From positions 30,978 to 94,977 of IMG/VR virus record IMGVR_UViG_3300032295_001098: 64,000 nt of DNA; one strand, 5' to 3'. The position numbers were made by a program, and so were the translations under genes. Below, piece after piece: positions 2,378 through 29,876 of the stretch; position 1 is the first letter of the stretch, and each line of letters begins with the position of its first letter. The notes below the pieces were generated by a model, which was not told where the DNA came from, made no database searches, and was given only the letters and a program-made list of their open reading frames with translations. The DNA is from a virus. Lineage: Duplodnaviria > Caudoviricetes.

Positions 2378-2408
2378 TATTCTTCTCCTTGATAGGCGGA
2401 TAAAGCAA

Positions 2409-2446: not shown

Positions 2447-2466
2447 ACCCTTCTAGTTTACAGGTG

Positions 2467-5122: not shown

Positions 5123-5400
5123 TCGTTTGAAGGAAGTTCTTCCCAGCCAGCCTTACGCCATACTGACGGGCTGTGGTTCTGCTCTACGAGCATCGCCTCA
5201 AGATCGTCTACATAAAGACGCAAGATATGAATGCAAGGGTCATCGCCCTCGTCCCATGCGCTGTCTTCGTCCTCGGTGGATGGTAACCCATCATGTGTTG
5301 AACACACAGGAGGACCGACCCACTTATTCTCTAATCCCATTTTAAGCCATGAGTCAAAATCCAATTTAGACATCGCCCCAATTCCTTTCCGCTCTTGCAA
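5119..5400 (-). CDS. Conserved-looking phage hypothetical protein (start probably 5373)
   Basis: FDSWLKMG..NKWVGPPVCSTHDGLP...GDDPCIHILRL. Confidence 0.65.
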   Translation of the reverse strand: MQERKGIGAMSKLDFDSWLKMGLENKWVGPPVCSTHDGLPSTEDEDSAWDEGDDPCIHILRLYVDDLEAMLVEQNHSPSVWRKAGWEELPSNE

Positions 5401-5848: not shown

Positions 5849-6312
5849 CAGTCGTAGAGACCCAACTCAATTCGTTGACGGTGCGTGTAGTACTCGGCGG
5901 CTGGGCAGTACATGCAAAGATACTGGCGCTTATCTTTAGGGACACCAACCTTGCGACCGACTGTCTTGTCGTCTGCACACCAGTCAAGACAACCTTGCTT
6001 AGGACGGTTATGTCGGTTAAAGCACTTGAGTGCATCTACCTTTAACTCGTCACGAGTGTCACGGATGTAGACGTCATTCTTTTCTAGTTCACTCTTGACG
6101 GCTGTCTCGGTGTCTAGTTTCTTGGCGGTCTCTTCATCTGTGCGGAAGATAATGGCGTTGCAGTCTTGTGGGTTTGGAACCTGTGCGTTGTGACGGTCAC
6201 AGAGTTCACGCAACTCTTGGTCATACTCCGCAGGTCCGTCATACGGCTTCATCTTGTACATGACACCGTGTGTTTTGCATACCAAAAGACGATGCGCTTG
6301 ATCATTGGACAT
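5848..6312 (-). CDS. Cys/His-rich hypothetical protein
   Basis: CKTH, CFNRHNRP..GC..W, YLCMYCP; SD AGGAG. Confidence 0.7.
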   Translation of the reverse strand: MSNDQAHRLLVCKTHGVMYKMKPYDGPAEYDQELRELCDRHNAQVPNPQDCNAIIFRTDEETAKKLDTETAVKSELEKNDVYIRDTRDELKVDALKCFNRHNRPKQGCLDWCADDKTVGRKVGVPKDKRQYLCMYCPAAEYYTHRQRIELGLYD

Positions 6313-6353
6313 GTTGTGCTCCTAACTTCGGTCTAGCCGAAGCCTACTATAAA

Positions 6354-6539
6354 TTATTCCGTGTCTGTTCTGCCGTACAAAGGTTGCATAGTCAACAAGC
6401 CATCATTGCATGATTTACACAAATGGGCTGTGAGATGCTCAGGGCTTTCTTGCTCTGTATCGCAGTGGACACAGGTGCGCTTATAGTCCTTCTTGTTGAC
6501 CGAAGGGTTGCCTCTAAACGCCCGATAGTCGGGACGCAT
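6354..6539 (-). CDS. Small zinc-finger protein
   Basis: CVHC...HLCKSC. Confidence 0.6.
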   Translation of the reverse strand: MRPDYRAFRGNPSVNKKDYKRTCVHCDTEQESPEHLTAHLCKSCNDGLLTMQPLYGRTDTE

Positions 6540-6540
6540 G

Positions 6541-6744
6541 TTATTGGTGCAGGTGTGCTTCGGGAGCGTTAGCCAAAGGGGTGCGCTCTACTATGCCGTA
6601 TTGTGCTTGGAGTTCCATAGCACGCACTGAAGCGTCAGTTGGATCAAGGTCACCACCACGGTCTGGTGTGGTGCTCTTAAACTTACCGTCCTTGGCGCCG
6701 AGGCGAAGGTCGTTGTTCATTGAGCGGGTTTCGTTTACAGCCAT
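6541..6744 (-). CDS. Small hypothetical protein (likely leaderless mRNA)
   Basis: TAGGAT 7 nt upstream of ATG; fills the gap between neighbours. Confidence 0.65.
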   Translation of the reverse strand: MAVNETRSMNNDLRLGAKDGKFKSTTPDRGGDLDPTDASVRAMELQAQYGIVERTPLANAPEAHLHQ

Positions 6745-6763
6745 AGTATTAATCCTATCATTT

Positions 6764-7459
6764 TTATTTAAGAAAATCTGGGGTGTTTTGTTCGTTTAGT
6801 GATTGACGAATCCTGTTAATAGCCTCTGTGCCCATTGTCCTACGTTGTGAACGGGTCTTTGCTGGAGTCTTAGACGTTGCTGTAGGTGTTGGTTGACGTG
6901 CTGCTTTCATCTGAGCCACTCCAGCAACAGCACTTTGTTGCAGTGGAGTCAATGGTGGGCGGGCAGGTGCAGGAGTTCCTGGTGCTGGGAATGCTTGGTT
7001 CTGCGATGGAGTTCCAAATGGCTGTACTCCTGGCGCTGGTGGTGGCATTGCTTTACTAGGCAATGCTGGTGCAGGGGACTTTTGAAAAGCGGCTTGATAT
7101 TGTGCTCGGTTAGCAAGTCCTACATACTGACTATAAAAGTTCTGACCAGCCTGTTGACTCTGTTGAGCCTTCTGTGCTTGTGCTTGACGGTTCAGGTTTC
7201 GGTTAACAAACCCTTGTCCAATTGCATTAACAGCATCGGCAGTAGCGCCTGGTTTGGTGCGGGTGTCACGAATTTCTCCACCACGCCACGCCTGTTGTAC
7301 GCCAGCATTTGGTGCTTGATACTTGTTTTGCGAAGTACGATTACCCTGCTTAAATTCGCCCTGCATCCATGATGGTGTGCGGTTTAGGTAACTCGCATTC
7401 ATTGACTGCCAGCGAGAGGTGCTTAAGTTACCAATGTAGTCACTGTCATTGTCAGCCAT
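6764..7459 (-). CDS. Low-complexity Gln/Pro/Ala-rich hypothetical protein
   Basis: QAQAQKAQQSQQ and PAPALPSKAMPPPAPG tracts. Confidence 0.7.
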   Translation of the reverse strand: MADNDSDYIGNLSTSRWQSMNASYLNRTPSWMQGEFKQGNRTSQNKYQAPNAGVQQAWRGGEIRDTRTKPGATADAVNAIGQGFVNRNLNRQAQAQKAQQSQQAGQNFYSQYVGLANRAQYQAAFQKSPAPALPSKAMPPPAPGVQPFGTPSQNQAFPAPGTPAPARPPLTPLQQSAVAGVAQMKAARQPTPTATSKTPAKTRSQRRTMGTEAINRIRQSLNEQNTPDFLK

Positions 7460-7461
7460 AG

Positions 7462-7779
7462 TTACATCCCCAAACTTTGCATTGAATAGCGACTAGAACC
7501 TGAGAAGTTGTCTTCCATGAATGTACCATCACGGAACATTACAGGAGCGCCAGAAACCCATGAACGGTTTGAAGCCGCATAACGGTCAATGTTCAGTACA
7601 TCCATGATGCCCATTGTTTGTTTTTCAAAACCACGGTTCTGCGGGAACACTTGCTGTGGGTACACAGGGCGAATCTTGCGAATGGTGTCTGGATCAGATA
7701 TGGCGTTCTGCAATGCCATGTCAACGAGCATCTCGGTGTGAGACTGCCACGGGCGTGAAGGTGGGACTTGTTGAGCCAT
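7462..7779 (-). CDS. Hypothetical protein
   Basis: Tightly packed co-oriented ORF. Confidence 0.65.
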   Translation of the reverse strand: MAQQVPPSRPWQSHTEMLVDMALQNAISDPDTIRKIRPVYPQQVFPQNRGFEKQTMGIMDVLNIDRYAASNRSWVSGAPVMFRDGTFMEDNFSGSSRYSMQSLGM

Positions 7780-8102
7780 TATTTAATCGGTTTTCCTCTG
7801 AAGGATGGATTGTTGTTTTCGTCCCATGAGAACATTGGCTTCTTGGCAACTTGTCCAGTGCCACCCTTGGCTTTGTCAATCAAGTTGCGTGGAGCAAGGT
7901 CAGAGATGCGTGCTACTTGACCTGTGTACTCAGGTGTATTTGGGTCATCCAAGTCTGGGTTTGCTGGACCGCCAACAATGGCGTCCTTGATGCGACTAAC
8001 GCCCTTTTTCATGCCACCAGAGGCAGGGTGGTTGCGCATCTTGTATGCATTCATGTCAACAATGCGTGCACCGTTGCGTGATTCGTCATTACCTTTTGCC
8101 AT
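7779..8102 (-). CDS. Hypothetical basic Gly/Pro-rich protein
   Basis: TAATG coupling to the next gene. Confidence 0.65.
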   Translation of the reverse strand: MAKGNDESRNGARIVDMNAYKMRNHPASGGMKKGVSRIKDAIVGGPANPDLDDPNTPEYTGQVARISDLAPRNLIDKAKGGTGQVAKKPMFSWDENNNPSFRGKPIK

Positions 8103-8104
8103 GG

Positions 8105-8596
8105 TTATTTCCAGTTCGGTGCTAGGGATTTGAGTTGAGAACGGCGTTGAAGGCTGATTTCTGTAGCCTCGTCACGCTTTTGGTCTCGTGAAATACCACG
8201 AGGACCGACCTTGCCATCATTAGTAAGACGCACAGGCTCTGCACCAGTTGGCGCAAACTTCAAACCTTGTGCTTGATACTGAAGAGCAGTATAAAGGTTG
8301 AACTCATCGGGCCAAATGTAATCGCCCGCATTAATCCGTTCACCTTTATGCACACCACGTGAGTACTGGCGAGCATTCATTCGGCTGAGTGAGCCGAGGA
8401 TCTTGTCTTGACGGCGGTTAGCCGACATGGTGCCAAGGTATCCGTCTGGATACTGGGTGTCAGCGCCTGTCTGGTAACCAGATAGCGCTAAGTCTTTGGC
8501 GTTGCGGAATACTGGGCTAGGACCAAAGTCGGACTGCGTGCCTACACCGTTTTGCGCCGCTGGAGTCATCCATGATGTAAAAGTGTTTTTGCTCAT
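8105..8596 (-). CDS. Hypothetical phage protein
   Basis: YPDGYLGT..RRQDK...YSRGVHKGERI...Y.WP looks like a conserved core. Confidence 0.7.
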   Translation of the reverse strand: MSKNTFTSWMTPAAQNGVGTQSDFGPSPVFRNAKDLALSGYQTGADTQYPDGYLGTMSANRRQDKILGSLSRMNARQYSRGVHKGERINAGDYIWPDEFNLYTALQYQAQGLKFAPTGAEPVRLTNDGKVGPRGISRDQKRDEATEISLQRRSQLKSLAPNWK

Positions 8597-8760
8597 ATGC
8601 CCGTTTGACCTTGTCCGCTCGGACTGAGCAGACCACCCATTATACCGCCACCTAGAGGTGAGATTGGGCGTATTGCATAGCGGGCACCGCCACGCTCACC
8701 AGTCATAGATGCAGGAGTCCTACCAATAGTAGGTTTGCGAGGCTTCTTTTTGGAAGCCAT
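8593..8760 (-). CDS. 55-aa basic Gly-rich protein (not in ORF track)
   Basis: MASKKKPRKPTIGRTPASMTGERGGARYAIRPISPLGGGIMGGLLSPSGQGQTGI*; ATGA overlap with the next gene. Confidence 0.6.
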   Translation of the reverse strand: MASKKKPRKPTIGRTPASMTGERGGARYAIRPISPLGGGIMGGLLSPSGQGQTGI

Positions 8761-8762
8761 AA

Positions 8763-9389
8763 TCACATCTCGTTAGGTTTTTTGGCTTTAGGGTTAGGAA
8801 TTGTTGCCTTCGGGTAAGTCTTGTTGGCAACTGAAGGTGCATCAATGCGCTTAGTGCGCTTGCTAGGTTTGTCGTTAGGCAACAATGCCATGCGCCGTTC
8901 ACGCTTTGCTTTACGGGTTGCATTTAGTTTTTCTGTAGCCATTGCTTTAACAGTTGCATTGCGCTCTTCAACATACTTGTCTCTGCCAGCCATATACTCA
9001 TCATGAGTAGCAGGAGCGCCTACCGTCTTACCCAGTAAGCGTGGATGGTTCTTTTCTAGTTGCTCAGGTGACGCTGTTTTACCTGTTGACTCAAGTCTTT
9101 CAACTGTCTGGGTATTTGGGTCACGCAAAGCAATGCGAACGTTTCCTACATCACCAATGTGGCTTGTCTTGGTTGAAATGTTGCGCTCAATTTTAATACG
9201 GTTAGTCCACTTGACTGGATACCCAGCATCGTCTGGACCAAGTGTCCCCGCTTCACGAGCAGGGGTATGGATCATAGGGACAACAGTTTCAGTAGGTTCT
9301 TCTGAAGACTTAGCCGTATTTGGTAGATCCCATATTTTAAATGGAGACTCTGAACCAGCGCCAGATGCGAAGTGGTCTTTACGAGCCAT
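8763..9389 (-). CDS. Hypothetical protein with Lys/Arg-rich C-terminus
   Basis: Co-oriented, TAATG coupling. Confidence 0.65.
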   Translation of the reverse strand: MARKDHFASGAGSESPFKIWDLPNTAKSSEEPTETVVPMIHTPAREAGTLGPDDAGYPVKWTNRIKIERNISTKTSHIGDVGNVRIALRDPNTQTVERLESTGKTASPEQLEKNHPRLLGKTVGAPATHDEYMAGRDKYVEERNATVKAMATEKLNATRKAKRERRMALLPNDKPSKRTKRIDAPSVANKTYPKATIPNPKAKKPNEM

Positions 9390-9670
9390 TAACGACCAGA
9401 TACATCGTATGGTTTGGCGTACCCGTTCTTCATGCCCCAGTCTTTATCCATCTCTGACAATCGTGCATCAACTTGTGCAGTTGTCATTGCTGGCTTACCG
9501 CCTGATCCCAGTTTTCCTTGGGCATCAAGTTGTTTAGGAGAGCCAGTTGGACGAGTCTTTACCCACGATGGTGGCTCAGGTGGAGCGCTACGCATACCAC
9601 GATGTGGCTCGTTGTTTGAAATACGGCTGTGGATGCTCATGGCTGTTAATAACCTAGTTCTTTCAACCAA
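9389..9670 (-). CDS. Hypothetical protein (start possibly 9640)
   Basis: Co-oriented ORF. Confidence 0.55.
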   Translation of the reverse strand: MVERTRLLTAMSIHSRISNNEPHRGMRSAPPEPPSWVKTRPTGSPKQLDAQGKLGSGGKPAMTTAQVDARLSEMDKDWGMKNGYAKPYDVSGR

Positions 9671-9951
9671 CTGTCGTCTTCTGGAGCGCTTGACTGAGGT
9701 TCAGGTGCTTTAGCAGGAATTGCTTTACCCCATACGTCTGTTTTTGCCTGCCCAAACTTACCTTGTTCGTAAGCCCTGTTTTGAGGAGCCATAGGCTTAT
9801 CGCCAAAAATCCCTCTAGATGGTTTGTAACCAGCGGATGAAAAATCGTTAACTGCACCTGGAACGTACGCTTGCCCTGGTTGGCTAAACTGTTTCTTCTT
9901 TGGTGGGTACTCAGAGTATGAACCACCACGAATCTTGTTAAAAATGCCCAT
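9646..9951 (-). CDS. Hypothetical Gly/Pro/Lys-rich protein
   Basis: Co-oriented ORF. Confidence 0.6.
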   Translation of the reverse strand: MGIFNKIRGGSYSEYPPKKKQFSQPGQAYVPGAVNDFSSAGYKPSRGIFGDKPMAPQNRAYEQGKFGQAKTDVWGKAIPAKAPEPQSSAPEDDSWLKELGY

Positions 9952-9953
9952 AG

Positions 9954-10160
9954 TTAGTCTTCTACTTTCGTCAAAAAGGATTTAGAGGAATCATAATCAG
10001 GATGCTTTTCCATACCTGCTGGCATGTCAAGATCATCACTGTCTTGTGTTACGCCGTGAGGGTCATCCCCACGACCTGCGTTGTAAGCACGATGGTGCAC
10101 CATTTTTGAACGGGCAGCGGCTGGAAGAGTGCCTCGCAATTTTGGGCTGATATCTGCCAC
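9954..10160 (-). CDS. Small hypothetical protein
   Basis: SD GAGGT upstream of GTG; fills the gap. Confidence 0.6.
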   Translation of the reverse strand: MADISPKLRGTLPAAARSKMVHHRAYNAGRGDDPHGVTQDSDDLDMPAGMEKHPDYDSSKSFLTKVED

Positions 10161-19221: not shown

Positions 19222-20781
19222 TTATAGTTGTGATGTTGATATGAAGTCAGACAAGGTACCGATTGTTAATTCAAACTTACCTTGGCTGTCGTAGTTTCCG
19301 TCAATAAAAGCCTCATTGATGCCACGCTTCTGTTGAAGCATTTCGTACTGGCGTTCCTCAATTGAACCTTTCATAACGAAGGATGCAACTGTAACGTGGG
19401 GGTGTAACGAAGACAACCTAATGATGCGAGCCTCTCGTTGATCCAGTTTCCCAGCGCTCCATGGCAGGTCGTAGGAGATGAGGTAGTTGGCATTTGGCAA
19501 ATCCACGCCATAACCACCAGCGTCTGACGATAAGAAGATACGGGTATTTGGGTCTGTAGCGAACTGTTGTTTAGCGGCGTCCCGTTCTTCGGCAGTCATG
19601 CCACCCATAAAAAGAACACTATTAGTCTGAGGTTTAAAAGCCGTTTGCAATAGTCGTAGGTTCTGTTTAAAGAATGAGAATAGAACAACCTTGCTATCAG
19701 GGTCACCCGACAAAATGTCAGTCACATACTCAATGACTGATGCCATCTTTGGCGCTTTGGCAGTTTCTGATAACCAACCAGCCTTGATGATCTTGTCTGC
19801 ATACTGGCTTCCATCTTTGCCTTGTGTCTCTCGGAACTTACGAGCAGAGTCATACACAAGGGCTGGGTTGTCACACAGCATGCGCAAGATAGTTAGGCGG
19901 GACATGATTTGCCCCTGCGCTTCTCCGCCACCGTCTCCACCGTTGTAGTGGGACCATAGATCAAAACCACGTCCATGTGTTGCAATGGCATTTGCTATCT
20001 CTTTTAGAAGATCTTTAGCAATTGCTTCGTAGGCAACTGCGCCAGCGTTATCAAAAGACACAGGTATTACTTGATGTATAACTTTTGGCAACTGATCTGC
20101 AATGTCTGCCCGTGTCTTACGAACCATGGACTCAGTGAGACTGTCTTGTAGTTGCTTAAGGTTTCGGTAGCGGACTGGCTTGCCGTAGTGATCACGGACA
20201 ATAAAGGTGCGGTCAAAGATGTCAAAGCGACCTAGCACTCCCTTATCTACGAACTCCATGATGGAAAATAACTCTTCTGGTTTGTTCTCAATTGGTTGAC
20301 CTGTTAGAGCGAAGCGGTAGTGGCACTTAGAGCCAAGTCGCTTGAGCAACTTAGAACGCTTTGCTCTAGGAGACTTGATGATGGTTGCCTCGTCTATGAC
20401 CATGGCGTCAAACTTAAGTGCAAGAAACTCTTTCTCGTCTTTTACCAACATCTCAGGGTTGACAATAACGTAACGACAACGCAAAGCATTGCGCCACAAA
20501 GGTGCACGAGCGGCTTTGGTACCGTCAATGACAATTGCTTTTGAGTTAGTGAACTTCTTAATCTCACGTAACCACTGGAACTTAAGTGATGAGGGAACTA
20601 CTACGGCTACACGATCAATCTCCCCGTCATCAAACAGTCGTTCAATAGCGGCAAGTGTTGTTGGTGTTTTACCAGCACCCATGACCATGGCAAGCATCAT
20701 CTGCCCACGATCAACCATGCGTTCCATGGCTTCCTGTTGGAATGGATAGAGGGTGCCGTTAAAAGTCATTACATCCACCAA
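19222..20781 (-). CDS. SNF2-family helicase
   Basis: LYPFQ, MGAGKT, VIDEAT, LTGQPIEN, GGYGVDL, QREARIIR. Confidence 0.93.
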   Translation of the reverse strand: MVDVMTFNGTLYPFQQEAMERMVDRGQMMLAMVMGAGKTPTTLAAIERLFDDGEIDRVAVVVPSSLKFQWLREIKKFTNSKAIVIDGTKAARAPLWRNALRCRYVIVNPEMLVKDEKEFLALKFDAMVIDEATIIKSPRAKRSKLLKRLGSKCHYRFALTGQPIENKPEELFSIMEFVDKGVLGRFDIFDRTFIVRDHYGKPVRYRNLKQLQDSLTESMVRKTRADIADQLPKVIHQVIPVSFDNAGAVAYEAIAKDLLKEIANAIATHGRGFDLWSHYNGGDGGGEAQGQIMSRLTILRMLCDNPALVYDSARKFRETQGKDGSQYADKIIKAGWLSETAKAPKMASVIEYVTDILSGDPDSKVVLFSFFKQNLRLLQTAFKPQTNSVLFMGGMTAEERDAAKQQFATDPNTRIFLSSDAGGYGVDLPNANYLISYDLPWSAGKLDQREARIIRLSSLHPHVTVASFVMKGSIEERQYEMLQQKRGINEAFIDGNYDSQGKFELTIGTLSDFISTSQL

Positions 20782-21698
20782 GGAAGCACTGATGCGTGCT
20801 TGATTGCATAATCTACTTCTGCGTCAGTCATGTCACCAATGTCTTTGGCGTCTGTCTTGCTGTAATCAAGGAAGAAGATACCGTCACGAAAACGTGGCAA
20901 TGCTTTTAGCAAAGTCTTAGCGGACTCAATTCCTGCTTTGTCGTTATCCATTGCAATGATCACTCGCTCTGCTGATTCAGAAAGCAAAGTCATTTGCTCG
21001 TGACTTACATGGGCACCAAATGTGGCGAGTGCTTGCATACCCCCGAATGATGATGCAAACCTCACCACATCTAGTGGTGACTCAACAAGCACAGCAGTCC
21101 TTGATTGAAAACGTTCAATACCAAAAAGAGTCCTGCTCTTCTTTATCCCAACTGGGTTGTTGTTGAAGTACTCAGGACCTTTTTCTTGCCATCCCATTAG
21201 TTCACCTAACGGAGAGACAATAGGAATTACCCATGCTTTCTTAAGCGTGTTCCATTTGATACCGTGCACTAGTGCAACGTCAGCGTCAAGGTGTCGCTTT
21301 ACTAACTCTCTGTGAGGCACCTGTTCAAAGCGACTGTACGAAACCCAATCAACTTCTGGCTGGTACTCAACACGTTCTGGAGCAGTGAGACGATTGATAC
21401 CTGTCTCAATCAACAACTGGTTAACAGCCGAAACACTGTCAGGGTTACCTGTCAACTCTGAAACAAGACCAGCAAGTGTTCCACGAGCGCCACATGAGTG
21501 ACAGATCCACAAACCGCTCTCTGCATTCATTGACCATGAAGGAGAACCATCTGCACGACCAGTGCGCTTCTCATGTACAGGACAGCATCCTGAAATCTCA
21601 CGACCACTTGTTCGGCGTACATCTACGCCAAGTTCTATAAGAACATTAGAAAGATCAGTAGTACCAGTTGTCTGTGTCGCCATTGTCATTTTCATCAA
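20769..21698 (-). CDS. DNA primase (Zn finger + TOPRIM)
   Basis: CPVH..PSWS..GLWICHSCG; LVESPLD; IAMDNDKAG; KDIGD. Confidence 0.9.
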   Translation of the reverse strand: MMKMTMATQTTGTTDLSNVLIELGVDVRRTSGREISGCCPVHEKRTGRADGSPSWSMNAESGLWICHSCGARGTLAGLVSELTGNPDSVSAVNQLLIETGINRLTAPERVEYQPEVDWVSYSRFEQVPHRELVKRHLDADVALVHGIKWNTLKKAWVIPIVSPLGELMGWQEKGPEYFNNNPVGIKKSRTLFGIERFQSRTAVLVESPLDVVRFASSFGGMQALATFGAHVSHEQMTLLSESAERVIIAMDNDKAGIESAKTLLKALPRFRDGIFFLDYSKTDAKDIGDMTDAEVDYAIKHASVLPWWM

Positions 21699-22923
21699 CC
21701 TCCGTAAAGTTCATATTTTCCCAATCCCATTTAATTCTTACTTCACCCTTAGGTGATGACCGAGACAAGATAACTCTGATGATTGCTTGGTTATCTACGT
21801 CAGGATCTGATTCCACACCGAGCACAAGGTCTGAGTCCTGTGCGAACGATGATGTGTAACCAATTGCTTCCGCCGTAATCTGTCGTGACTTCTTGTTTCC
21901 AAGTTTCCACGACAATACTTGTGTTGTCCCGATGATAGGGATATCAAAGCGCTGTGCCAACCTCTTAAGCGAGCGTGTGATATTTGTCAATGCTTGTGGT
22001 GAACCCTTTGGTTCTCCTTGCTCATCGTCCATGAGGTATACACCGTCAACGATAAGCAAACGTGGTCGGTGTTGTTGCACCTTTCCAGCAAGTGCACTTA
22101 CTGTTGTTAGAGAGTGCGTATCTTCGGTCATGATGAACGGGTGCATGTTCTTGCGAAGTTTCAGCGCTTTTGAAATACGCTCCATGTCTTGCGCAGTCAA
22201 ATCACCTCGGATGATGCGTGTATGTGGCACTCCTGAAATGATGGCGTCATAACGAGCCGCTTGCTCTTCAATACTCATTTCAAACGAAACATACATTGGC
22301 GTGATGCCGTGGCTGTGAGCCGCATCAGCCATGATCAAGGTCATTAATGATTTACCTTTTTTCGCTTCACCAACGAATGTAACCAACTGCTGAGGCCGAA
22401 GACCAGCAGTGATCCGATCAAGACCCAAGAAGCCTGTCGGAATGCCACGTAGACCGTTCGGGGTGTTACGCATTTCTTCATACTTTGCTAATCGTCCTTC
22501 CCATGATTCCATGAGGTCAATGTCTCGGAGTCGTGCAACTTCTACTGATGCCTTCTGTAGACCCTCGGAGAGTTTGTTAAAGGCTTCTTCAGTCTCGTTG
22601 TTATTAAGCGATGGGAGCGCAGATGTAATTGCGCTGACCAAGTGCTGGTGTTTGTAAGCAATATAGATTTCGTCAATGAGCGCTTGAAATGGTTCGTTCT
22701 CAGCGTTGAGCAAACGTAGGTCTGCGTACTGTTGCTTGAACACACGAGCGCTTGGCACCACGCTGTATTCACGCCAGTAGTCAAGAACCCATAGCCAGAT
22801 GTCAGACCATTCACCACTGAAGTGATCAGGGCGAAGTCCACCGTCAATGATCTCGCTGAGGTCAGCAGTCTGAATAACCTTGCTAATTAAGAGATGTTCA
22901 GTTGATGCCATTAGAAAACCCAA
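21655..22923 (-). CDS. dnaB: DnaB-like replicative helicase (start probably 22911)
   Basis: GIPTGFLGLD..TAGL, GEAKKGKS, SFEMS, IVDGVYLM, LKRLA, QDSD. Confidence 0.92.
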   Translation of the reverse strand: MGFLMASTEHLLISKVIQTADLSEIIDGGLRPDHFSGEWSDIWLWVLDYWREYSVVPSARVFKQQYADLRLLNAENEPFQALIDEIYIAYKHQHLVSAITSALPSLNNNETEEAFNKLSEGLQKASVEVARLRDIDLMESWEGRLAKYEEMRNTPNGLRGIPTGFLGLDRITAGLRPQQLVTFVGEAKKGKSLMTLIMADAAHSHGITPMYVSFEMSIEEQAARYDAIISGVPHTRIIRGDLTAQDMERISKALKLRKNMHPFIMTEDTHSLTTVSALAGKVQQHRPRLLIVDGVYLMDDEQGEPKGSPQALTNITRSLKRLAQRFDIPIIGTTQVLSWKLGNKKSRQITAEAIGYTSSFAQDSDLVLGVESDPDVDNQAIIRVILSRSSPKGEVRIKWDWENMNFTEVDENDNGDTDNWYY

Positions 22924-23351
22924 GCGCTTGTAGGAGATGAAACTGTCGCACGAATACCAAGCGCAAATGCTTGTTCTTGGTGCGGGACGAAGATTGTACG
23001 GACAGATCTCTTGAAACGCAAGTCGTATTCAAGTTCTCCTACATTTTTATAATAGAGAACAGGAAGAGACATTCCTTTACGTTGTAGCCAGTTGTCTACT
23101 GCTTCAACTGCGTCTATTGCCAAGAAGGTGTACACCTCTGCACCAATACCTAAACGATGCGTTGTGTCATAGAGCGACTTCAACGGAAGGTCGTGTGGCT
23201 CCCACAAGTTAAGAACACGGTTCCAGTTGTTGCGTGCTTTGTACAACGAACTACCAATACCTTTAAACCCTCCAGGAGGAGAAGCAAGTAGTTCTTCAAA
23301 GATAACTCCGTATCCAACATCATCGTATGACTGAATATCGTTACCGAACAT
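22911..23351 (-). CDS. Hypothetical protein (degenerate HAD-like)
   Basis: Coupled gene in the replication operon. Confidence 0.6.
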   Translation of the reverse strand: MFGNDIQSYDDVGYGVIFEELLASPPGGFKGIGSSLYKARNNWNRVLNLWEPHDLPLKSLYDTTHRLGIGAEVYTFLAIDAVEAVDNWLQRKGMSLPVLYYKNVGELEYDLRFKRSVRTIFVPHQEQAFALGIRATVSSPTSAWVF

Positions 23352-23983
23352 TAGTGCTCCAACCTGTAGTCAGCACCAGTTACTCCCATAATGAAACATG
23401 ATTGTTTGATAATGGAATGCACTCGTGGACTGTACAGAGTTGGTAACTTGTCGGGGTTGATTTCTGTTGTAAAGATTGTTGGCAGTTGCATGTCGTAGCG
23501 AGACTCAATCATGCTTGACACAGTCTTGGACATATATTCAGTCAAGCGGTCTGCATTCAAGTTGTCAACAACAACGATGTCATAAATGCGGCGCATGTAC
23601 TTAAGCAAGTTTGGATCGCCATACATCTCAGGAAGTTCACCATCGTTGTTGCGTGAGTCGTGCACCATCTCAACAAAGATGTCGTAGGAGATAAACAAAC
23701 CACTGAGTTCGTTCTTTGAAACAACTTCACGCAAAGCGGATACCGCCATGTGTGTTTTACCAAGACCTGTCTTGCCATGGATATACAAACCCATGCCGTC
23801 TTCCATTCGCTTTTCAATATTGTTTGTCCACTTGATGACAGCATCTTTGAATGCAGGAGAACCTTCGTTCTCGTCATAGTTTGCAAACGTGCTGTTCTTG
23901 TAGCGAGGTGGTATGCGCAGGTTACGAACCCGTTCTTCAACGGGGCGGTTGCGCCAGTACTTTGAACTCTTCCAGTCAGTCAT
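23351..23983 (-). CDS. DnaC/IstB-like AAA+ helicase loader
   Basis: IPPRYKNSTFANY, GLYIHGKTGLGKTH, VVVDNL, RY..QLPTIFTT; start reassigned to MTDWK. Confidence 0.88.
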   Translation of the reverse strand: MTDWKSSKYWRNRPVEERVRNLRIPPRYKNSTFANYDENEGSPAFKDAVIKWTNNIEKRMEDGMGLYIHGKTGLGKTHMAVSALREVVSKNELSGLFISYDIFVEMVHDSRNNDGELPEMYGDPNLLKYMRRIYDIVVVDNLNADRLTEYMSKTVSSMIESRYDMQLPTIFTTEINPDKLPTLYSPRVHSIIKQSCFIMGVTGADYRLEH

Positions 23984-24152
23984 GCTTTTCCATTTTGTGA
24001 GGGGGTAACGATGATACCGCACACCTGTGGTCTAAAAACGTAACTGCATCTAAAAAGTAAAGATCACAGCAAATACAATGTATATACGATCTACTCTTCG
24101 GTAAGTCTTGGGTCAATTGAGATTGAGGTCGGCTGATCGTCTTCTTTGACAT
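23976..24152 (-). CDS. 58-aa zinc-finger-like protein (not in ORF track)
   Basis: MSKKTISRPQSQLTQDLPKSRSYIHCICCDLYFLDAVTFLDHRC...; SD AAGGA; stop overlaps the DnaC start. Confidence 0.6.
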   Translation of the reverse strand: MSKKTISRPQSQLTQDLPKSRSYIHCICCDLYFLDAVTFLDHRCAVSSLPPHKMEKHD

Positions 24153-24498
24153 AGTTTTCCTTTGCGTATTTATCTAAGTTTGCTAAGAATGCTCTCCACG
24201 GCGCAACCTCCACTGGTAACGGTCTCCGTGTTATCTCTTTTACAAACGCCATGATCATGGCACGTATCTGGTCAGTTGTAAAGCCCTTGTCGGTGAGTTT
24301 CTTGAAACCCTTCATCAAGGCGGGACCATTCACTGGGGCGGTGATTCTGTCCAGCGTCTCGGTCGGGAGACTGTCACGGAAGAAGTACACCAAGTTACCT
24401 CGGGAGTCCTGTCGGGTCTGTTTTGGGGCGGGTTCTTTTTTGTCGGGGTCTTCACCTAAGCCGACGCCCCAGTCGTCAGAAAGTTTCTTCATCTTCAA
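24091..24498 (-). CDS. Hypothetical protein (helical, possibly initiator-associated)
   Basis: Lies between the HTH initiator and DnaC. Confidence 0.6.
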   Translation of the reverse strand: MKMKKLSDDWGVGLGEDPDKKEPAPKQTRQDSRGNLVYFFRDSLPTETLDRITAPVNGPALMKGFKKLTDKGFTTDQIRAMIMAFVKEITRRPLPVEVAPWRAFLANLDKYAKENYVKEDDQPTSISIDPRLTEE

Positions 24499-24961
24499 GC
24501 CTCTGATCTACTTGTGTTGAAATTTTCCCTTTCTTGTTAAATTTACTCTTGTTATATACTCTTGATTGGGTGTCACCCGTGACACTACTAGTGGTGTCTC
24601 CCGTGACACTACCTAGTGTCTCCATGGACACTACTAGGGGTGACTCGTGTGACACTACTGGGTTGTTAAAATTGACGTAATAACGGTTCGTCAAGTTCTT
24701 GTTGTTACGGGTCACACGGTGCTGTTTGACGATCAAGCCAATCTCTTCTAGGCGCTTCATGGAGCGGATTACGGTTCGGCGGTCACAGCCCAACTGGTCA
24801 GCAATGTGCTGGTAGGAGGTTGTCAGTTCCTGCGTATCTGGGTGAAGGTACTGAAGCATGTGGTTCAGTACTGCATGCGAGATGTAGTCCGTAGAGATGT
24901 ATGGAAGCACCCATCTCGGGACAGGTAAAAAAGGTCCGCTCAACTTATTGTTTCGTGCCAT
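24476..24961 (-). CDS. HTH replication initiator (lambda-O-like arrangement)
   Basis: SYQHIADQLGCDRRTVIRSMKRLEEIGLI...NRY; internal DNA repeats; SD AGGAG before MARNNK; heads the DnaC-DnaB-primase operon. Confidence 0.8.
   Translation of the reverse strand: MARNNKLSGPFLPVPRWVLPYISTDYISHAVLNHMLQYLHPDTQELTTSYQHIADQLGCDRRTVIRSMKRLEEIGLIVKQHRVTRNNKNLTNRYYVNFNNPVVSHESPLVVSMETLGSVTGDTTSSVTGDTQSRVYNKSKFNKKGKISTQVDQRLEDEETF
24570..24658. repeat. Four 16-bp palindromic iterons (putative replication origin)
   Basis: GTGTCACCCGTGACAC (24570), GTGTCTCCCGTGACAC (24594), GTGTCTCCATGGACAC (24616), GTGACTCGTGTGACAC (24640), each followed by TAC; AT-rich tract at ~24520-24563. Confidence 0.8.
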
Positions 24962-24992
24962 ACTGCTCCTCAGGTTGTTATCTAGGGTCGCC

Positions 24993-25002
24993 ATGCTACA
25001 CT
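24993..25002. promoter_or_regulatory. Overlapping divergent -10 elements
   Basis: Plus strand TGcTACACT (extended -10, 24994-25002); minus strand TAGCAT (24998-24993) facing the initiator gene. Confidence 0.5.
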
Positions 25003-25008
25003 CTCGCT

Positions 25009-25144
25009 AGTCGCTTTAGCACTTCCCTGATCGGGTGCTAAAGTGGGCATAGTGTTGGGGGGAGGGCGACCTCCTCAGGAACTACAGAGCAAGGGTCTTT
25101 CCCTCCTTTCTGCCCTTGCCCTTGTTAACGGCCCTCCCTTCAAC
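25009..25144 (+). ncRNA. Candidate structured small RNA with anti-SD loop
   Basis: Hairpin 25012-25045; 14-bp stem 25054-25067/25131-25144 with G-U pairs; inner stem GCAAGGG/CCCTTGC enclosing CCTCCTTTCT. Confidence 0.55.
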
Positions 25145-25159
25145 CGCTAAACTATGTTC

Positions 25160-25324
25160 ATGGCATCTAAAAAAGAAGTATGGGATAAACCCAATCCAAA
25201 GAAGAAGTCAACCAAGTTGACACCTGACCAGAAGTCAGAAGCAAAGGCTCGTGCTAAAGCCGCTGGTCGTCCATATCCAAACCTTGTTGACAACATGGCT
25301 GTCTCCAAGAAAGGTAAGAAATAA
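25160..25324 (+). CDS. 54-aa basic protein (not in ORF track; leaderless)
   Basis: MASKKEVWDKPNPKKKSTKLTPDQKSEAKARAKAAGRPYPNLVDNMAVSKKGKK*; TAAACT 6 nt upstream; TAATG coupling. Confidence 0.8.
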   Translation: MASKKEVWDKPNPKKKSTKLTPDQKSEAKARAKAAGRPYPNLVDNMAVSKKGKK

Positions 25325-25593
25325 TGGCTGAGAGTAAGAAAGACCCACGACTTGCACGTGCAGGTGTGTCTGGTTTCAACAAACCAAAAGCAACACCTGA
25401 CCACCCAACTAAGTCGCATGTTGTTGTTGCTAAAGAAGGCGACAACGTTAAGACCATTCGCTTTGGGCAACAGGGCGTCAAAGGTTCACCTGATGGTTCC
25501 GCACGCAATGCTTCGTTCAAGGCACGTCATGCCAAGAACATCTCTAAAGGAAAGATGTCTGCCGCCTATTGGGCTGACAAGGTGAAGTGGTAA
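25324..25593 (+). CDS. Small basic viral protein (FG...R..FKARH...SAAYWA..W type)
   Basis: KSHVVVAKEG..KTIRFGQQG...RNASFKARH...MSAAYWADKVKW. Confidence 0.8.
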   Translation: MAESKKDPRLARAGVSGFNKPKATPDHPTKSHVVVAKEGDNVKTIRFGQQGVKGSPDGSARNASFKARHAKNISKGKMSAAYWADKVKW

Positions 25594-26415
25594 CTAAATA
25601 GTTGCACCGAAGCCAAACAACTGTTTGACTTCTTCCACGTTTGCAGGACGGCTCATGATCACTCCGCTAGGGAATGTTGCCGTAAGCATGCAGGTGTCAT
25701 AAGAATTAGTAACTGCTCGGTCGTTTTGAGCACTACTTACAACATGGAATGTACCTAGATCAATAGGTGGCAAGATGTCTACTTCTTCTACTTCGGTATC
25801 TTCAATAATTGGGTCTGGCATCGTAACGTCATTGAGTATTGCATCAACGATTTGTTCTTTAGTCATGGTCGTTCCTACTTGGATACCTTGAGCCTTTGCG
25901 TTCTTGCGAAGGACACCAATAGACATTGACAACATTTCAGCACGGCTAAATGGTTCAATCTCAACTTCTTCAGTAGGTACTGGTGTTGCTTTCTCTTCGT
26001 GTGTAATGTCCACAACAATTGGGACCAATCCATTAGTCAAGTCCAGGATTGTTACACCAGCGTCAGCCGCATCAAAACAGATCTCTTCCATTTCAGGTAC
26101 TAATGTGTCATCCCAAAGAAGCAAAAGAGTTCCTTTGGTCTTTGACAAATAGTGAATGATGTCCCTTGCTGGGTTTGCATCTAGTCGTTCAATTGAAGCC
26201 TTCTCAATAAACTCCGCAGGAGCCTTACCATTGTGGGTAAGCATGAAATCAACTTCCATGTCAATCAACCAGTTGATTACTCTTGACTCTGACTCTGATG
26301 GCTTGGCACCACAGGTAACAATAAAGTTGTTATCTACGCCCAGTTCATTAAGAGCATCTTCAATGATGTTCTTGCTGGTTCTACCTGTTCCTAAAATCCC
26401 ATATTTCTTTAGCAT
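25594..26415 (-). CDS. Rossmann/SLOG-like N-domain plus Rho-N/HeH-like helical motif
   Basis: YGILGTG start; MLSMSIGVLRKNAKAQGI...MTKEQIVDAIL; acidic. Confidence 0.45.
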   Translation of the reverse strand: MLKKYGILGTGRTSKNIIEDALNELGVDNNFIVTCGAKPSESESRVINWLIDMEVDFMLTHNGKAPAEFIEKASIERLDANPARDIIHYLSKTKGTLLLLWDDTLVPEMEEICFDAADAGVTILDLTNGLVPIVVDITHEEKATPVPTEEVEIEPFSRAEMLSMSIGVLRKNAKAQGIQVGTTMTKEQIVDAILNDVTMPDPIIEDTEVEEVDILPPIDLGTFHVVSSAQNDRAVTNSYDTCMLTATFPSGVIMSRPANVEEVKQLFGFGATI

Positions 26416-26424
26416 CGTTTTCTC

Positions 26425-26700
26425 CTATTTTAATGATTTGCGTTGTGACATGTCCCCCACAAGCGTAATCATTCGGAGTACACCGTGGCAGGCGCCAGCC
26501 AGTGTAGCGACAACAAGACCCGAAGTCCACATGTCTTCAATACTTAAAACAAAAGATGCGCCGTATCCAAATACAACGCCAGCAAGAATCTTGACCCAAG
26601 GCATCGCTTCCCTTGGAGTTAATACGTTTAGTAGTTGAACCAATTTGTATACCGCTAACCCAGCGATTATGTAGTTCATAAAGCCTTTCCAGGAATCCAA
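26425..26700 (-). CDS. Small membrane protein (start probably 26679)
   Basis: Three hydrophobic segments. Confidence 0.7.
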   Translation of the reverse strand: MDSWKGFMNYIIAGLAVYKLVQLLNVLTPREAMPWVKILAGVVFGYGASFVLSIEDMWTSGLVVATLAGACHGVLRMITLVGDMSQRKSLK

Positions 26701-28298
26701 TCAAACATAAGTTGATACTTAGGTTGCCCGCTCACGGTACCAAGCATTGTAACTGGAAGGATCTGGGGAAGCAAACGCTCAATTGCGCTTTGTGTCTTCT
26801 GACGGTTCGTTGTATAAATTGAATAAGAAGCCTGTTCTGTACCAGACCACTTGTAGTCAGAACTAAAACCTTGGTACAAGAACCCACCAAAAACGGTATC
26901 CCCGTCAAAGAACTGCCCAACCTTATTTGGTTCAACCATCCAACGAGATAGTGTTACAGATTGATTAGCACTAAGTTTAAACAAAAATACAGGTCGGTTG
27001 CTTCCCGACGCCACTGACGTCATTGGGTAGGCAACACGGTTAGCGGCGCTTACAGGGACGCTTGCCCCAGCAGTCGTGGCTGACCAATCTGACCATGAAG
27101 CACCAGACGACCAGTAACCACCATAGACAACCTCTGGTGCTTGGCTAAATTCCCCAGACATGTAGTAAGTACGGGTTGCTTCCATAACCACTGCTGTCTT
27201 ACACATAACAGCAACCTGGGTAGCAGTCGCACCAGCCGTTATTGTGATGCCTTCAGTAGGAGTGGTGCTAACTGTTACAGAGTTTTCAGAATAGACAGCC
27301 CATGTAGATCCCGAAGCACCCACAAAACGTGGGTCGGCAATAAGGTTTGCTCGCTCTGCGTGTACTGCAAAGGTGTAATAAGGAGCGGATGCTCCAGTAA
27401 AGACAGTGACGTCTCCGCCACTTACTGCTGTGACATAGTCTTTGGTTGCCTCAAGGGTTCCTTTGTTTTTACGAAGGTACCCAATGTCATGTAATAACGC
27501 ACGAGTTCTTGATACACCGATGTCAGAAACACCAATCTCCAGACCAAGCATCTTTGCCAGTTCGTTAACTGCCTCGGCTTCAGCCAATAATGGGTCATAC
27601 TGGACCATCATGGTGTCAATAAGCGTACGGCTTCGGTCTAACTCAAATCCAAAAGTATCAATAAAGCGTTCTAACTGTGTGTCATTTGCTTCATCCTGCT
27701 CACGGTAGTACTTAGGGATTCTTCTCCACATCTCATCCCGTGATCCATAATCTTTAGGAACAATTAGTTCAAGTTCAGACAGTAACTCATAGTGGTATGT
27801 ACCGCTTGTTCCTTCAGTGTTGTAATAAACAAACAAAGAATAATACGCCCATTTACCAGTTGCTGGTTCATTTTCGTACACAATTCCTTGGTCAGTTGTG
27901 ATCGCAATACTTTCTTGATGAAGGTAACTATTGTCAGTACCTTGGTAGATGAGTTTGCCATCAGTCACAGTTTGTGGGTAGCCAGTTTTTGAATAAACTA
28001 TTGCAACATTAAGGATTCCAGACTCACCAACACCAATATCAGCAAGTTCTGAATATGTCTCTGTCAATGTCCAATTTAAAAGAACAGCAGTGTACTCAAT
28101 AGCAGTTGCTTCAAATGTTGATTCTGGAGTTGTTGGGATAACAGTAATAATGTCTTTTGAACGGATTGCCGAGTCTTGGTCAAACGACGATGCCCCAGCG
28201 GTTGCTTGAATATCGCTTGTACCTCTTACAAACGAACCAACACCAACGACGTCTCCAGAGACAATTGGACGCCTAAGTCTAAATGATTTGCGTGCCAT
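26676..28298 (-). CDS. Baseplate wedge/tail protein (P2 gpI-like) with C-terminal carbohydrate-binding-like domain
   Basis: IPKYYR..D...LERFIDTFGFELD, LAKMLG, KGTLE; NLIADPRF; FFDGD. Confidence 0.75.
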   Translation of the reverse strand: MARKSFRLRRPIVSGDVVGVGSFVRGTSDIQATAGASSFDQDSAIRSKDIITVIPTTPESTFEATAIEYTAVLLNWTLTETYSELADIGVGESGILNVAIVYSKTGYPQTVTDGKLIYQGTDNSYLHQESIAITTDQGIVYENEPATGKWAYYSLFVYYNTEGTSGTYHYELLSELELIVPKDYGSRDEMWRRIPKYYREQDEANDTQLERFIDTFGFELDRSRTLIDTMMVQYDPLLAEAEAVNELAKMLGLEIGVSDIGVSRTRALLHDIGYLRKNKGTLEATKDYVTAVSGGDVTVFTGASAPYYTFAVHAERANLIADPRFVGASGSTWAVYSENSVTVSTTPTEGITITAGATATQVAVMCKTAVVMEATRTYYMSGEFSQAPEVVYGGYWSSGASWSDWSATTAGASVPVSAANRVAYPMTSVASGSNRPVFLFKLSANQSVTLSRWMVEPNKVGQFFDGDTVFGGFLYQGFSSDYKWSGTEQASYSIYTTNRQKTQSAIERLLPQILPVTMLGTVSGQPKYQLMFDWIPGKAL

Positions 28299-28301
28299 TT
28301 A

Positions 28302-29876
28302 TTAGCCTCCTGAAGCGACAATACCACCACTAGGTGTAATGGTAAAGGTTGAGGATGGAGCAATAGTTAGTAGCGATGTGCTTGGAGCAACAACTCCAGT
28401 AAACCCACCACTACTATCAATTACGTTTCCGCTTGTTGTAGTAAACCTAGTCACTACTGCGTAGTCCACACCTGGAATGTCAAGAACAGTTCGGTACAAG
28501 GTACCAAGTGATACCCTGCTACCAAAGTCCATGTTGTCAAATGAGAATAATGCACGTATTGCCGTTTTTACATTGTCGTTTACTGCTTCTTGGATATACC
28601 CGTTTTGAACTTGTACGGTTGCAACAACATTGACTTTTGTTAAACTAACTGAGGCTCCTACGTTTGAAGTAGCAAATACAATTTCACGTGGTTCTAGGTA
28701 GTCAATAATTTCTTGTTTTTTAATTGTGTCAATTGCAACTGTTAGTGCAGAACCATAATCAGATGGTTCTTCCATAGCCAGAATTTGCACTACGTTACTA
28801 CCGTCAACATAAGCAGTTGATCGTACAATTCCAGGAATACGCTTTACAATATCTTTGTAATCTTGCAAAGATACAGCACGGTCTTGTGTTCTAAAAGTTG
28901 TAGGGATGTTGGCTTTCAAAGAAGCCATTGATTCAATGTCAACACCACCAGCCGCCGCAGAAGTATTTGGGATCACAACTAACCCATCAAGAGATGGTTT
29001 ACTTGGAACAGTGGTGCTTTCCAATGTAGTGATTGAACCAACTGCTACGTTTCCAGAAGCACCACGACTACGTCGGTATTCAATAGTTATTGAAGAGTTA
29101 GTCGTTGGTATCTTTCCGTTAATACCATTTCCAAAAGAAACAATAGTGTAGTTATCGGCATCAATGTCAACAGTAAATATATTTGAACTACTACCTCCAT
29201 CAATAATTCGTGAGGCATACGCATAGCGAATATCTGATGAATCAGTACCTTCTCCAACGTTTACTACAATACTGGTAGTTACTACACCACTTTGACGTAA
29301 AGTGATTTGTTGACCAGAAAGACCTGTAGCCGTGTATGTTTCTGTGAAGCGCTCACCTTCTGTAACACCAACAGAAACAGTTGTTGTCTTTGGGTATGTT
29401 ACATACGTAACTCCATCAGAGACTAAGTTTGCGCTTGCTCCAGATACAGTGCCCACAAAAGCAATTGGATTGTTTAAAGTAAAAATGACACTTGTTGAGG
29501 TGTCTACCAATGGGGATGCTACAAAGCGGGTGTACTGAGGGATATAAATTGGAGTTGCATCAGTGGCGGTTGTTGCCGAAGCATTTAATTGAATAACAGC
29601 CGTTGCTGAACGACGGCCCGATGGTACGTAGTCTAAAAGGTTGGCAATAGCCAAAACGCTTTCACGTTGTGTAGCGGTTCCAAGAAACGCTTCACCAGCC
29701 GCACGGTCCACATAAAAATGCAAAACGTCTCCCATGTATGACCATAGGTCAACCATGACCATACCGAAGTCTGAAGACTCACGTGATGTCCATTCAGGGA
29801 TTTGTGTAGAAGCACGTGCAAGCAAGTCTGCTTGAATAGACGTGTAATCACGACTTGTGTAATCAAAAGTGGTCAT
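28302..29876 (-). CDS. Baseplate J / gp6-like wedge protein
   Basis: DYTSRDY, PEWT..SDFG, FGNGINGKIP, GGVDIES, QDRAVSLQDY. Confidence 0.92.
   Translation of the reverse strand: MTTFDYTSRDYTSIQADLLARASTQIPEWTSRESSDFGMVMVDLWSYMGDVLHFYVDRAAGEAFLGTATQRESVLAIANLLDYVPSGRRSATAVIQLNASATTATDATPIYIPQYTRFVASPLVDTSTSVIFTLNNPIAFVGTVSGASANLVSDGVTYVTYPKTTTVSVGVTEGERFTETYTATGLSGQQITLRQSGVVTTSIVVNVGEGTDSSDIRYAYASRIIDGGSSSNIFTVDIDADNYTIVSFGNGINGKIPTTNSSITIEYRRSRGASGNVAVGSITTLESTTVPSKPSLDGLVVIPNTSAAAGGVDIESMASLKANIPTTFRTQDRAVSLQDYKDIVKRIPGIVRSTAYVDGSNVVQILAMEEPSDYGSALTVAIDTIKKQEIIDYLEPREIVFATSNVGASVSLTKVNVVATVQVQNGYIQEAVNDNVKTAIRALFSFDNMDFGSRVSLGTLYRTVLDIPGVDYAVVTRFTTTSGNVIDSSGGFTGVVAPSTSLLTIAPSSTFTITPSGGIVASGG

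Follow-up and report, generated by a model that had tools for sequence, protein, structure and literature searches.

Non-structural genes of the Cluster K mycobacteriophages carry, 3-7 bp before their starts, a 13-bp start-associated sequence (SAS) whose ends are symmetric around AGGAG; where the original report discusses this motif, its role is given as unknown and the question of whether RNA or protein reads it is left open (Pope 2011, PMC3203893). The passages on the SAS in papers from 2020 (PMC7302621), 2024 (PMC11373665) and 2025 (PMC12699233) still call its role unknown. Here we describe a structured element from a phage whose start sites carry a comparable motif. The DNA analysed is a 64,000-nucleotide stretch (hereafter the window; positions 30,978 to 94,977) of the 94,977-bp virus record IMGVR_UViG_3300032295_001098 (Duplodnaviria; Caudoviricetes), which has 47% G+C. 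The element lies in the divergent gap at 24962-25153 of the window, between a replication initiator gene on the minus strand and small genes on the plus strand. It has a conserved structure, folds on the plus strand and contains an exact complement of the phage's own start-site motif. With a probability that we put at roughly 45%, we read it as a base-pairing phage RNA that blocks these stereotyped start sites, the one of the adjacent initiator among them.

The start-site motif of this phage resembles the SAS in form and in placement. The motif here and the SAS of both Cluster K (GGGATAGGAGCCC) and the Cluster EF Microbacterium phages (GGGAAAGGACCCC) are 10-14 nucleotides (nt) long, with a Shine-Dalgarno (SD) core and complementary outer bases, and they stand a few nt before the start codons of many non-structural actinophage genes. 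In both cases one copy lies in the opposite orientation and away from a gene start, as far as the relevant passages of the SAS description go (PMC3203893). The motif of this phage, CCUGAGGAGG with variable flanks, differs from the published SAS consensus and is analogous rather than identical to it. It is nevertheless of the same type, being a stereotyped motif with an SD core that occurs at starts far above chance and that combines symmetric outer bases with an asymmetric core. Genomes G000, G001 and G002 each contain one reversed copy, and the copy within the element has no SD-spaced start codon in 10 of the 20 variants described below. The reversed copy here sits in a covarying structured RNA beside the initiator, whereas the main-text passages on the SAS describe no such RNA.

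A conserved plus-strand structure in the initiator gap

To describe the element we aligned 49 loci, which reduce to 20 distinct sequence variants. An extended -10 (TGC-TACACT; TGCTACACT; plus strand, 24994-25002), here called P1, reads TG[C/T]TACACT in all 20 and ends about 7 nt ahead of a 5' hairpin. This hairpin (hairpin 1, plus strand, 25012-25045), predicted to have 13 pairs and the loop CCCUGAUC, forms at the same position in every variant despite differing stem sequences. It is followed by a closing helix (helix 3) in which a G-rich 5' strand (25051-25067) pairs with a C-rich 3' strand (25131-25148, C25144 bulged); the alignment thereby lengthens the outer stem formed by GTTGGGGGGAGGGC (25054-67) and GCCCTCCCTTCAAC (25131-44) to 17 pairs, 6 of which have changed on both sides, with 100% of cells paired. 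Within this helix an internal loop holds the motif GACCUCCUCAGG (plus strand, 25068-25079), which includes a second CCUCC at 25070-74, may itself form a 3-pair CCU/AGG hairpin with the loop CCUC, and belongs to a region that is invariant in 20 of 20 variants (A19-G29 of alignment A3). The inner stem-loop (helix 5; plus strand, 25084-25125) pairs ACAG and GCAAGGG with CCCUUGC, C and UGU around the core GCAAGGG (25089-95)/CCCTTGC (25113-19), and 4 of its 11 pairs have changed on both sides, again with 100% of cells paired. Its apical loop of 17 nt (25096-25112) contains CCUCCUUUCU at 25102-25111, and the loop core CCTCCTTTC, within the loop CCUCCUUUC, is invariant throughout the set. The unpaired stretches ACCUCCUCAGG, ACAGAG and UUUNCCUCCUUUC stay constant while the stems vary. 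At the right-hand end of the gap stands a -10-like hexamer, TAAACT (plus strand, 25148-25153; P2), which reads TACACT or TACAAT preceded by TG in relatives; in this region G154, C155, T156, A157, A159 and T161 of alignment A2 are invariant.

The plus strand of the element folds with -62.8 kcal/mol (z -2.97), a stability reached by 2 of 200 shuffles, while the minus strand folds with -57.1 kcal/mol (z -1.45; 11 of 200). Across the 20 variants the consensus fold comprises 38 pairs, of which 12 show compensatory changes, and 99.2% of cells are paired. None of 500 shuffles reached the observed covariation, and controls in which the pairing was slid paired just 41-53% of cells. Since helices 3-5 contain 42 G-U cells versus no A-C cells, the plus strand is the folded strand. 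A covariance model of the element (R1) likewise scored 98-110 bits on the plus-sense strand versus 19-20 bits on the reverse. The initial annotation of this gap, made from the letters alone, had proposed a small RNA built from an extended -10, a hairpin at 25012-25045, a 14-bp stem, an inner stem and a second CCUCC, and each of these was found where it had been placed. Its argument that G-U wobbles favour the plus strand is borne out by the figures just given, and the covariation in relatives for which it had proposed a test is present.

The G-T pairs tolerated in folded single-stranded DNA could also produce such a pattern, and the gap adjoins a module of initiator, helicase-loader and helicase genes and contains direct repeats, the 9-mer CTCCTCAGG and GCTA[A/C]ACT occurring twice each. 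An element acting as DNA or single-stranded DNA, such as a priming signal, part of an origin or operator repeats, is nonetheless very improbable in our estimation. The invariant extended -10 is placed for transcription to start just before hairpin 1, compensatory change through intermediates that are exclusively G-U is typical of RNA, and the conserved motifs match ribosome-binding sites rather than iterons.

We also considered whether the gap encodes a peptide. The initial annotation had raised the possibility that the G-rich complement of the loop is simply the SD sequence of a translated minus-strand micro-open reading frame (ORF), and no conserved ORF of this kind was found. In 10 of the 20 variants no minus-strand GGAGG is followed by a start codon 4-12 nt away. 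In 6 variants the loop GGAGG of that strand has a TTG 9 nt downstream, which opens a 5-codon ORF (30 codons in L106), and 3 further variants hold just another minus-strand TTG ORF of 17 codons. A plus-strand ORF was rejected as well, the open frames shifting between clades through 1-nt indels. Because the element covaries, is strand-biased and has no conserved ORF, we conclude that it is genuine, non-coding, structured and specific to one strand, for which an RNA is the simplest explanation. It matches no described family: an Rfam 15 cmscan of 24000-26000 on both strands, with E up to 10, gave 4 weak hits, none inside 24962-25153 and all far below their gathering scores, and neither 6C (RF01066) nor C4 (RF01695) was matched.

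Model R1 found exactly one copy per genome in G000, G001 and G002, co-oriented with a block of small genes that is described below, and no match in G003. The element was present at all 18 loci with an initiator identity of 83% or more (gap identities 73-96%) and at none of 6 loci with an initiator identity of 51% or less. Pattern scans yielded true members in 20 of 24 viral-contig stretches and 10 of 12 metagenome stretches; L107, L113, L118, L119, L132 and L136 were dropped when reading showed their matches to be due to chance. The core pattern had no matches in bacterial genome contigs, and hence neither a host copy nor a prophage was found there.

The position of a 17-pair G/C-rich helix at a boundary of transcription units might suggest a structural insulator or a factor-independent terminator that separates the late and replication operons and the two plus-strand genes from one another, with the C-rich motifs as by-products of the helix. 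Actinobacterial terminators can lack U-tracts, and the element is not the G/C-rich hairpin with a U run that defines an intrinsic terminator. We regard this explanation as a long shot: it has no need of two invariant unpaired motifs of 11-13 nt, of a covarying inner stem-loop or of a separate 5' hairpin, and the covariation is specific to the plus strand, on which just two small genes lie downstream.

Complementarity to phage start sites and a possible blocking RNA

About 20 small genes form a plus-strand block to the left of the window (-10732 to -1879 in window coordinates; about 20245-29100 of G000:C1; about 1245-10100 of locus L148). In about a dozen of them GAGGAGG stands 4-9 nt before the ATG, as part of a stereotyped start-site hairpin, NNCCU-GAGG-AGGN'N', that presents GAGG in its loop and contains the SD sequence. 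Four of these start sites are of the CCUGAGGAGG type (one reads UCUGAGGAGG) and five, near-identical to these, read CCUAGAGGAGG, all with complementary flanks; the general form can be written NNCCUGAGGAGGN'N' or CCUAGAGGAGG, and with the start codon the type reads GACCUGAGGAGGUC-ATG. The initiator has CCUGAGGAGC; the RNA is predicted to target the motif CCUGAGGAG (minus strand, 24966-24974) in its SD region, a motif that does not vary ahead of the initiator in any of the relatives listed. Of ten block proteins, five have a PHROG match, to one helicase and four families of unknown function, and five have none. Between small genes at about 1760-7800 of L148 the gaps are long (88-183 nt) and hairpin-rich, and a module CCCCAGCG..CTAGG..GTTCAATCG..GGGACT precedes at least three block genes; such modules may be processing sites, promoters or partners resembling the extended SAS (ESAS).

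GACCUCCUCAGG complements the CCUGAGGAGGUC start sites exactly, and the RNA can form the mirror image of their hairpin, with CCUC in its loop. We calculated duplex energies between the RNA segment 25066-84 and 106 start regions and counted exact 8-mer matches. The duplexes reached -22.0 to -26.1 kcal/mol with four plus-strand start sites, -17.6 to -19.7 kcal/mol with the five CCUAGAGGAGG sites and -18.3 kcal/mol with the initiator, against a mean of -10.7 kcal/mol over all 106. The GACCUCCUCAGG segment, with its CCUCCUCAGG motif, was the sole stretch of the RNA containing 8-mers that are perfectly complemented in 2-6 of the 106 start regions, and the complement of CTCCTCAG occurs 8 times genome-wide, 6 of these copies being at start sites. 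With the initiator the RNA shares 9 complementary nt (CUCCUCAGG/CCUGAGGAG), for which the -18.3 kcal/mol compares with -9.3 +/- 2.6 kcal/mol for shuffles.

The same start motif recurs in relatives G001-G003, where it is kept 5-15 times. CCTGAGGAG has 8, 11 and 15 copies in three relatives versus 0, 0 and 1 for the reversed control, and 26 of the 28 copies listed in the gene blocks examined have an ATG or GTG within about 4-12 nt downstream. The flanks of the motif co-vary among relatives (GA/UC, G/C, UA/UA and GU/AC).

These observations are consistent with a regulatory RNA from the plus strand, about 140 nt in length (about 25009-25148), that would be transcribed from P1, start near 25009 and end with the closing helix at 25148. 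P1 would lie back to back with the promoter region of the initiator gene, for which the minus-strand hexamer TAGCAT (24993-24998; TAGCAT or TAACAT in relatives) is a candidate -10; plus-strand TACACT and minus-strand TAGCAT overlap face to face (24993-25002), and RNA polymerase could therefore probably not occupy both divergent promoters at once. The domain closed by the 17-pair G/C-rich helix displays the two invariant, mostly unpaired C-rich motifs, and GACCUCCUCAGG would pair with the initiator's start site and those of the small plus-strand genes, blocking ribosome binding. A start-site hairpin facing its mirror hairpin is the geometry of antisense RNAs that begin with a loop-loop contact, so pairing may open between CCUC and GAGG. 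The predicted outcome is a shut-off of the block genes together with limited synthesis of the initiator, amounting to a timing or copy-control switch on phage mRNAs. P1 as a promoter, the ends of the RNA, its expression and its repressive action are all what we infer from these features.

The part of the apical loop is the least certain in this scheme. Its UUUCCCUCCUUUCU resembles the 16S rRNA tail and may widen the reach of the RNA to start sites of the GGAGGG type or to host mRNAs; CCUCCUUUCU within the loop is what we take to be the 3' tail of actinobacterial 16S rRNA. In the phage, at most a single 8-mer target matches this loop perfectly, and the best duplexes of the loop, at -17 kcal/mol, compare with a mean of -9.2. 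The initial annotation had assigned the action to this loop, whereas the best complementarity is to phage start sites and runs through the internal CCUCCUCAGG motif. It had also proposed a takeover in which SD-led host mRNAs are silenced and leaderless phage mRNAs remain translatable. As about a dozen phage genes have GAGGAGG 4-9 nt ahead of their ATG, and the phage's own genes are strongly SD-led, the takeover idea is unsupported; the small gene adjacent to the element does look leaderless (14 of 14 contexts, see below), as that proposal would have it, but phage genes in general are mainly SD-led. Its further suggestion that the RNA controls copy number through the initiator is plausible in view of the 9-nt complement, and survives as part of the start-site blocking proposed here.

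That the RNA titrates host SD sequences in general, mainly through the 16S-like loop, while leaderless phage mRNAs continue to be translated, therefore seems to us a remote prospect. The loop CCUCCUUUC is invariant in all 20 variants, its want of a perfect phage target leaves room for host targets, the adjacent small gene looks leaderless, and the host is probably actinobacterial, of a phylum in which leaderless mRNAs are common. Set against this, an SD precedes most phage genes, in many cases as a perfect GAGGAGG, and the phage itself would be affected; stoichiometric titration of all host SD sequences by one small RNA (sRNA) would be demanding, and a single leaderless candidate was seen.

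The invariance of 9-11 loop nt next to a varying closing stem, the lack of a matching phage target for the loop and an apparent immediate-early position next to divergent promoters would also suit a decoy or protein-binding RNA. Such a replica of the 16S tail, perhaps together with the SD-like G-rich strand, could bind a ribosomal protein, a nuclease involved in maturation or decay, or a defence toxin with the anti-SD as its cleavage site, and so protect or retune ribosomes. We consider this improbable, since none of the tools applied points to a protein interaction or partner, the 16S identity is our own assumption, and the other invariant motif has a clear explanation in base pairing.

Several observations weigh against a start-site blocking RNA. 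The complement to the initiator is just 9 nt long, and the best single shuffle (-20.3 kcal/mol) goes beyond the observed -18.3. RNA and targets are both invariant and show no co-variation with each other, and in the L114 clade the RNA has AACC for GACC with start sites unchanged. The start-site hairpin is nearly self-complementary, leaving only the loop and a few flanking bases informative beyond a generic anti-SD sequence. The reversed copy is not a universal feature: G003 has 15 forward start motifs, no reversed copy and no R1 match, and in the Microbacterium phage AnnaSerena, which has 10 forward SAS, 50,000 of the 56,707 bases (88%, the first 6,707 lying outside this range) contain none in reverse. 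A two-hexamer promoter scan flagged nothing at P1 or P2, and P1 has no -35. A terminator scan of the plus strand from 24994 to 25160 found no U-tract terminator after the helix, which is followed by AAACUAUGUUC. The four sequencing runs listed for this region are labelled RNA-Seq but look like DNA, consist of contigs with cover across genes and gaps alike, and say nothing on expression, ends or strand. The 'early' status of the plus-strand block is assumed from its gene content. Finally, locus L010 (2828-2894; same contig as L115) has lost 27 nt that include P2 and the closing helix's 3' strand, so that the RNA runs directly into the downstream gene; this deletion may be real or an assembly artefact.

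A genome-wide search for P1-like motifs returned 8 matches to GCTA[ACT]A[ACT]T and 100 to the loose TGnTAnnnT, from which no early-promoter consensus could be obtained.

Neighbouring genes and linkage of the element

To the left of the gap lies a minus-strand replication module that consists of the initiator-like gene, a DnaC-like loader and a DnaB-like helicase. The first of these (24476-24961, ATG at 24961-24959) encodes a helix-turn-helix, initiator-like replication protein (phrog_270, 1e-14). To the right, two small plus-strand genes converge on tail-fibre and baseplate genes. The nearer one encodes a small basic protein of 54 aa (25154/25160-25324; phrog_34011), of which relatives are encoded in at least 554 viral-contig stretches; its first ATG (25154) is not conserved, and the conserved ATG is at 25160. 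The second (25324-25593; phrog_7595) encodes 89 aa. This phrog_7595 gene shares 66-81% nucleotide identity with Roseobacter, Lentibacter, Celeribacter and SIO1-like phage genes (24 records), which is unusually high for phages of hosts from different phyla.

The host of the phage is likely an actinobacterium, because the window holds two WhiB-family genes (155-370, plus strand, and 2662-2862, minus strand; 58.1 and 51.8 bits, both Pfam matches above cut-off) and the DnaB-like helicase finds its best matches in Streptomyces phages. Four wastewater runs from one study hold contigs 90-99% identical to positions 23000-26750 of the window, which places close relatives of the phage in wastewater.

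The phrog_34011 gene (25160) has no SD sequence, and its conserved ATG lies exactly 6 nt after the P2 hexamer in 14 of 14 contexts with that gene. As the spacing is fixed although the six intervening bases vary, its mRNA is probably leaderless and made from its own promoter, P2. In 3 further contexts a different, SD-led gene follows the element, the downstream gene having been replaced between clades, and the element is absent from 78 of 78 other phage loci with a homologue of the small gene. Given these swaps and absences, and its presence at 18 of 18 loci with a closely related initiator, the element travels with the initiator and its promoter region.

This linkage bears on the possibility that the structure is a cis-acting 5' leader of a plus-strand transcript, serving the downstream small genes as an attenuator, a put-type antitermination signal or a 5' stabiliser. 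The structure opens a few nt after the P1 -10 and closes about 12 nt before the next gene, no U-tract terminator separates the two, and in the L010 deletion variant P1 alone could serve that gene, all of which would suit a leader. Yet the downstream gene differs among clades while the RNA is constant, the RNA is missing from all 78 other loci with the same small gene, and the invariant hexamer 6 nt before the ATG implies that this gene has its own leaderless start. Moreover, the gene offers no SD for the C-rich motifs to sequester, and with just two small genes before the convergent operon there is little for antitermination to act on. We therefore judge a cis-acting leader to be unlikely.

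Loci of the L020/G003 clade lack this RNA family and have the same layout at the equivalent position. There a TGATACACT -10 precedes a putative RNA some 100 nt long (about 2790-2940 on the minus strand of locus L020), which ends in a 12-pair terminator-like hairpin; beyond it a -10 hexamer stands 5 nt before a leaderless ATG. This RNA contains a near-continuous complement of about 24 bp to the SD and AUG of its own initiator, with a duplex energy of -41.0 versus -24.4 +/- 3.9 for shuffles. The clade is known from only three near-identical contigs, a renewed search having returned the same three, and the complement may possibly represent operator repeats at the DNA level.

Comparison with known regulatory systems

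A reversed copy of the start motif also exists in the Mycobacterium phage Anaya, which has 16 forward SAS and 1 reversed (17 sites). The reversed SAS lies within a hairpin on the transcribed strand (L149, 34850-34905; about 59849-59904 of the record) in the 385-nt non-coding gap between gp96 and gp97. The fold of this gap has a z-score of -5.96 and presents CCUCCUAUCC as the 10-nt apical loop of the hairpin. The region is kept in 135 mycobacteriophage records, mostly without annotation; among nine aligned relatives of Anaya, eight keep a C-rich loop of this type (seven have CCUCCUAUCC), and compensatory changes are found in the outer stem. Searched against Rfam, the Anaya gap gave nothing above the gathering score. 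This parallel, which like the putative RNA of the L020 clade speaks for a start-site blocking RNA, is independent of the window and is itself a prediction from the DNA. The region that holds the Anaya hairpin is taken to be transcribed late; if so, the hairpin would be made late.

A broader reading is that the RNA represents the missing trans-acting partner of the actinophage SAS, switching off all SAS-bearing genes, including the initiator, at a set time of infection. Cluster K would have arrived at the same design independently, and the second loop would, in addition, either vie with ribosomes for SD sequences or, as a decoy, draw off factors that bind the 16S tail. We hold this more extensive proposal to be possible but doubtful. 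In the main texts of the literature on anti-SD or SD-mimic phage sRNAs, we found no paper describing such an RNA.

Structured phage sRNAs that pair with ribosome-binding regions of phage genes encoded elsewhere are represented by the c4 RNA of P1 and P7 and the CI RNA of P4. The logic predicted here is the same, without a match in sequence or structure (Rfam, E up to 10). Their targets differ from the one proposed here, a repeated start-site hairpin common to about ten genes and the initiator of a lytic-looking actinophage.

In its predicted fold, the element also has the features of the bacterial sRNAs that pair with SD regions through C-rich loops, namely unpaired motifs at 25096-25112 and 25068-79 and calculated duplexes down to -26 kcal/mol. 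Like 6C RNA, RsaE/RoxS and RNAIII, it carries C-rich loop motifs predicted to pair with G-rich SD regions. Unlike these RNAs, it is phage-encoded, and one of its motifs adds 5-7 specific bases (UCAGG, GA) that match the phage start sites.

The countertranscripts of plasmids, CopA/CopT, RNAI/RNAII and pT181 RNAI, provide a further parallel, being small structured RNAs next to an initiator gene that are complementary to its translation start and may begin pairing by loop-loop contact. In contrast to them, the RNA proposed here is probably not cis-antisense. Because the starts suggested by the overlapping -10 hexamers at 24993-25002 would give RNAs that diverge without overlapping, its pairing with the initiator would depend on a separate target copy of 9-12 nt, and it probably has distant targets as well.

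If the start-site blocking reading is true, actinobacterial phages would time a whole class of genes and their own replication with one small RNA, and the structured RNAs on record would gain a new family, from uncultured phages of freshwater and wastewater. With an exact antisense of the start motif and a place beside the initiator, the covarying RNA is a concrete candidate that mutation can test. Phage T4 shuts off its early mRNAs by way of their ribosome-binding sites with RegB, a nuclease that cuts GGAG, and RegA, a repressor. The functional logic is shared, and where the T4 regulators are proteins, the one proposed here would be their RNA counterpart.

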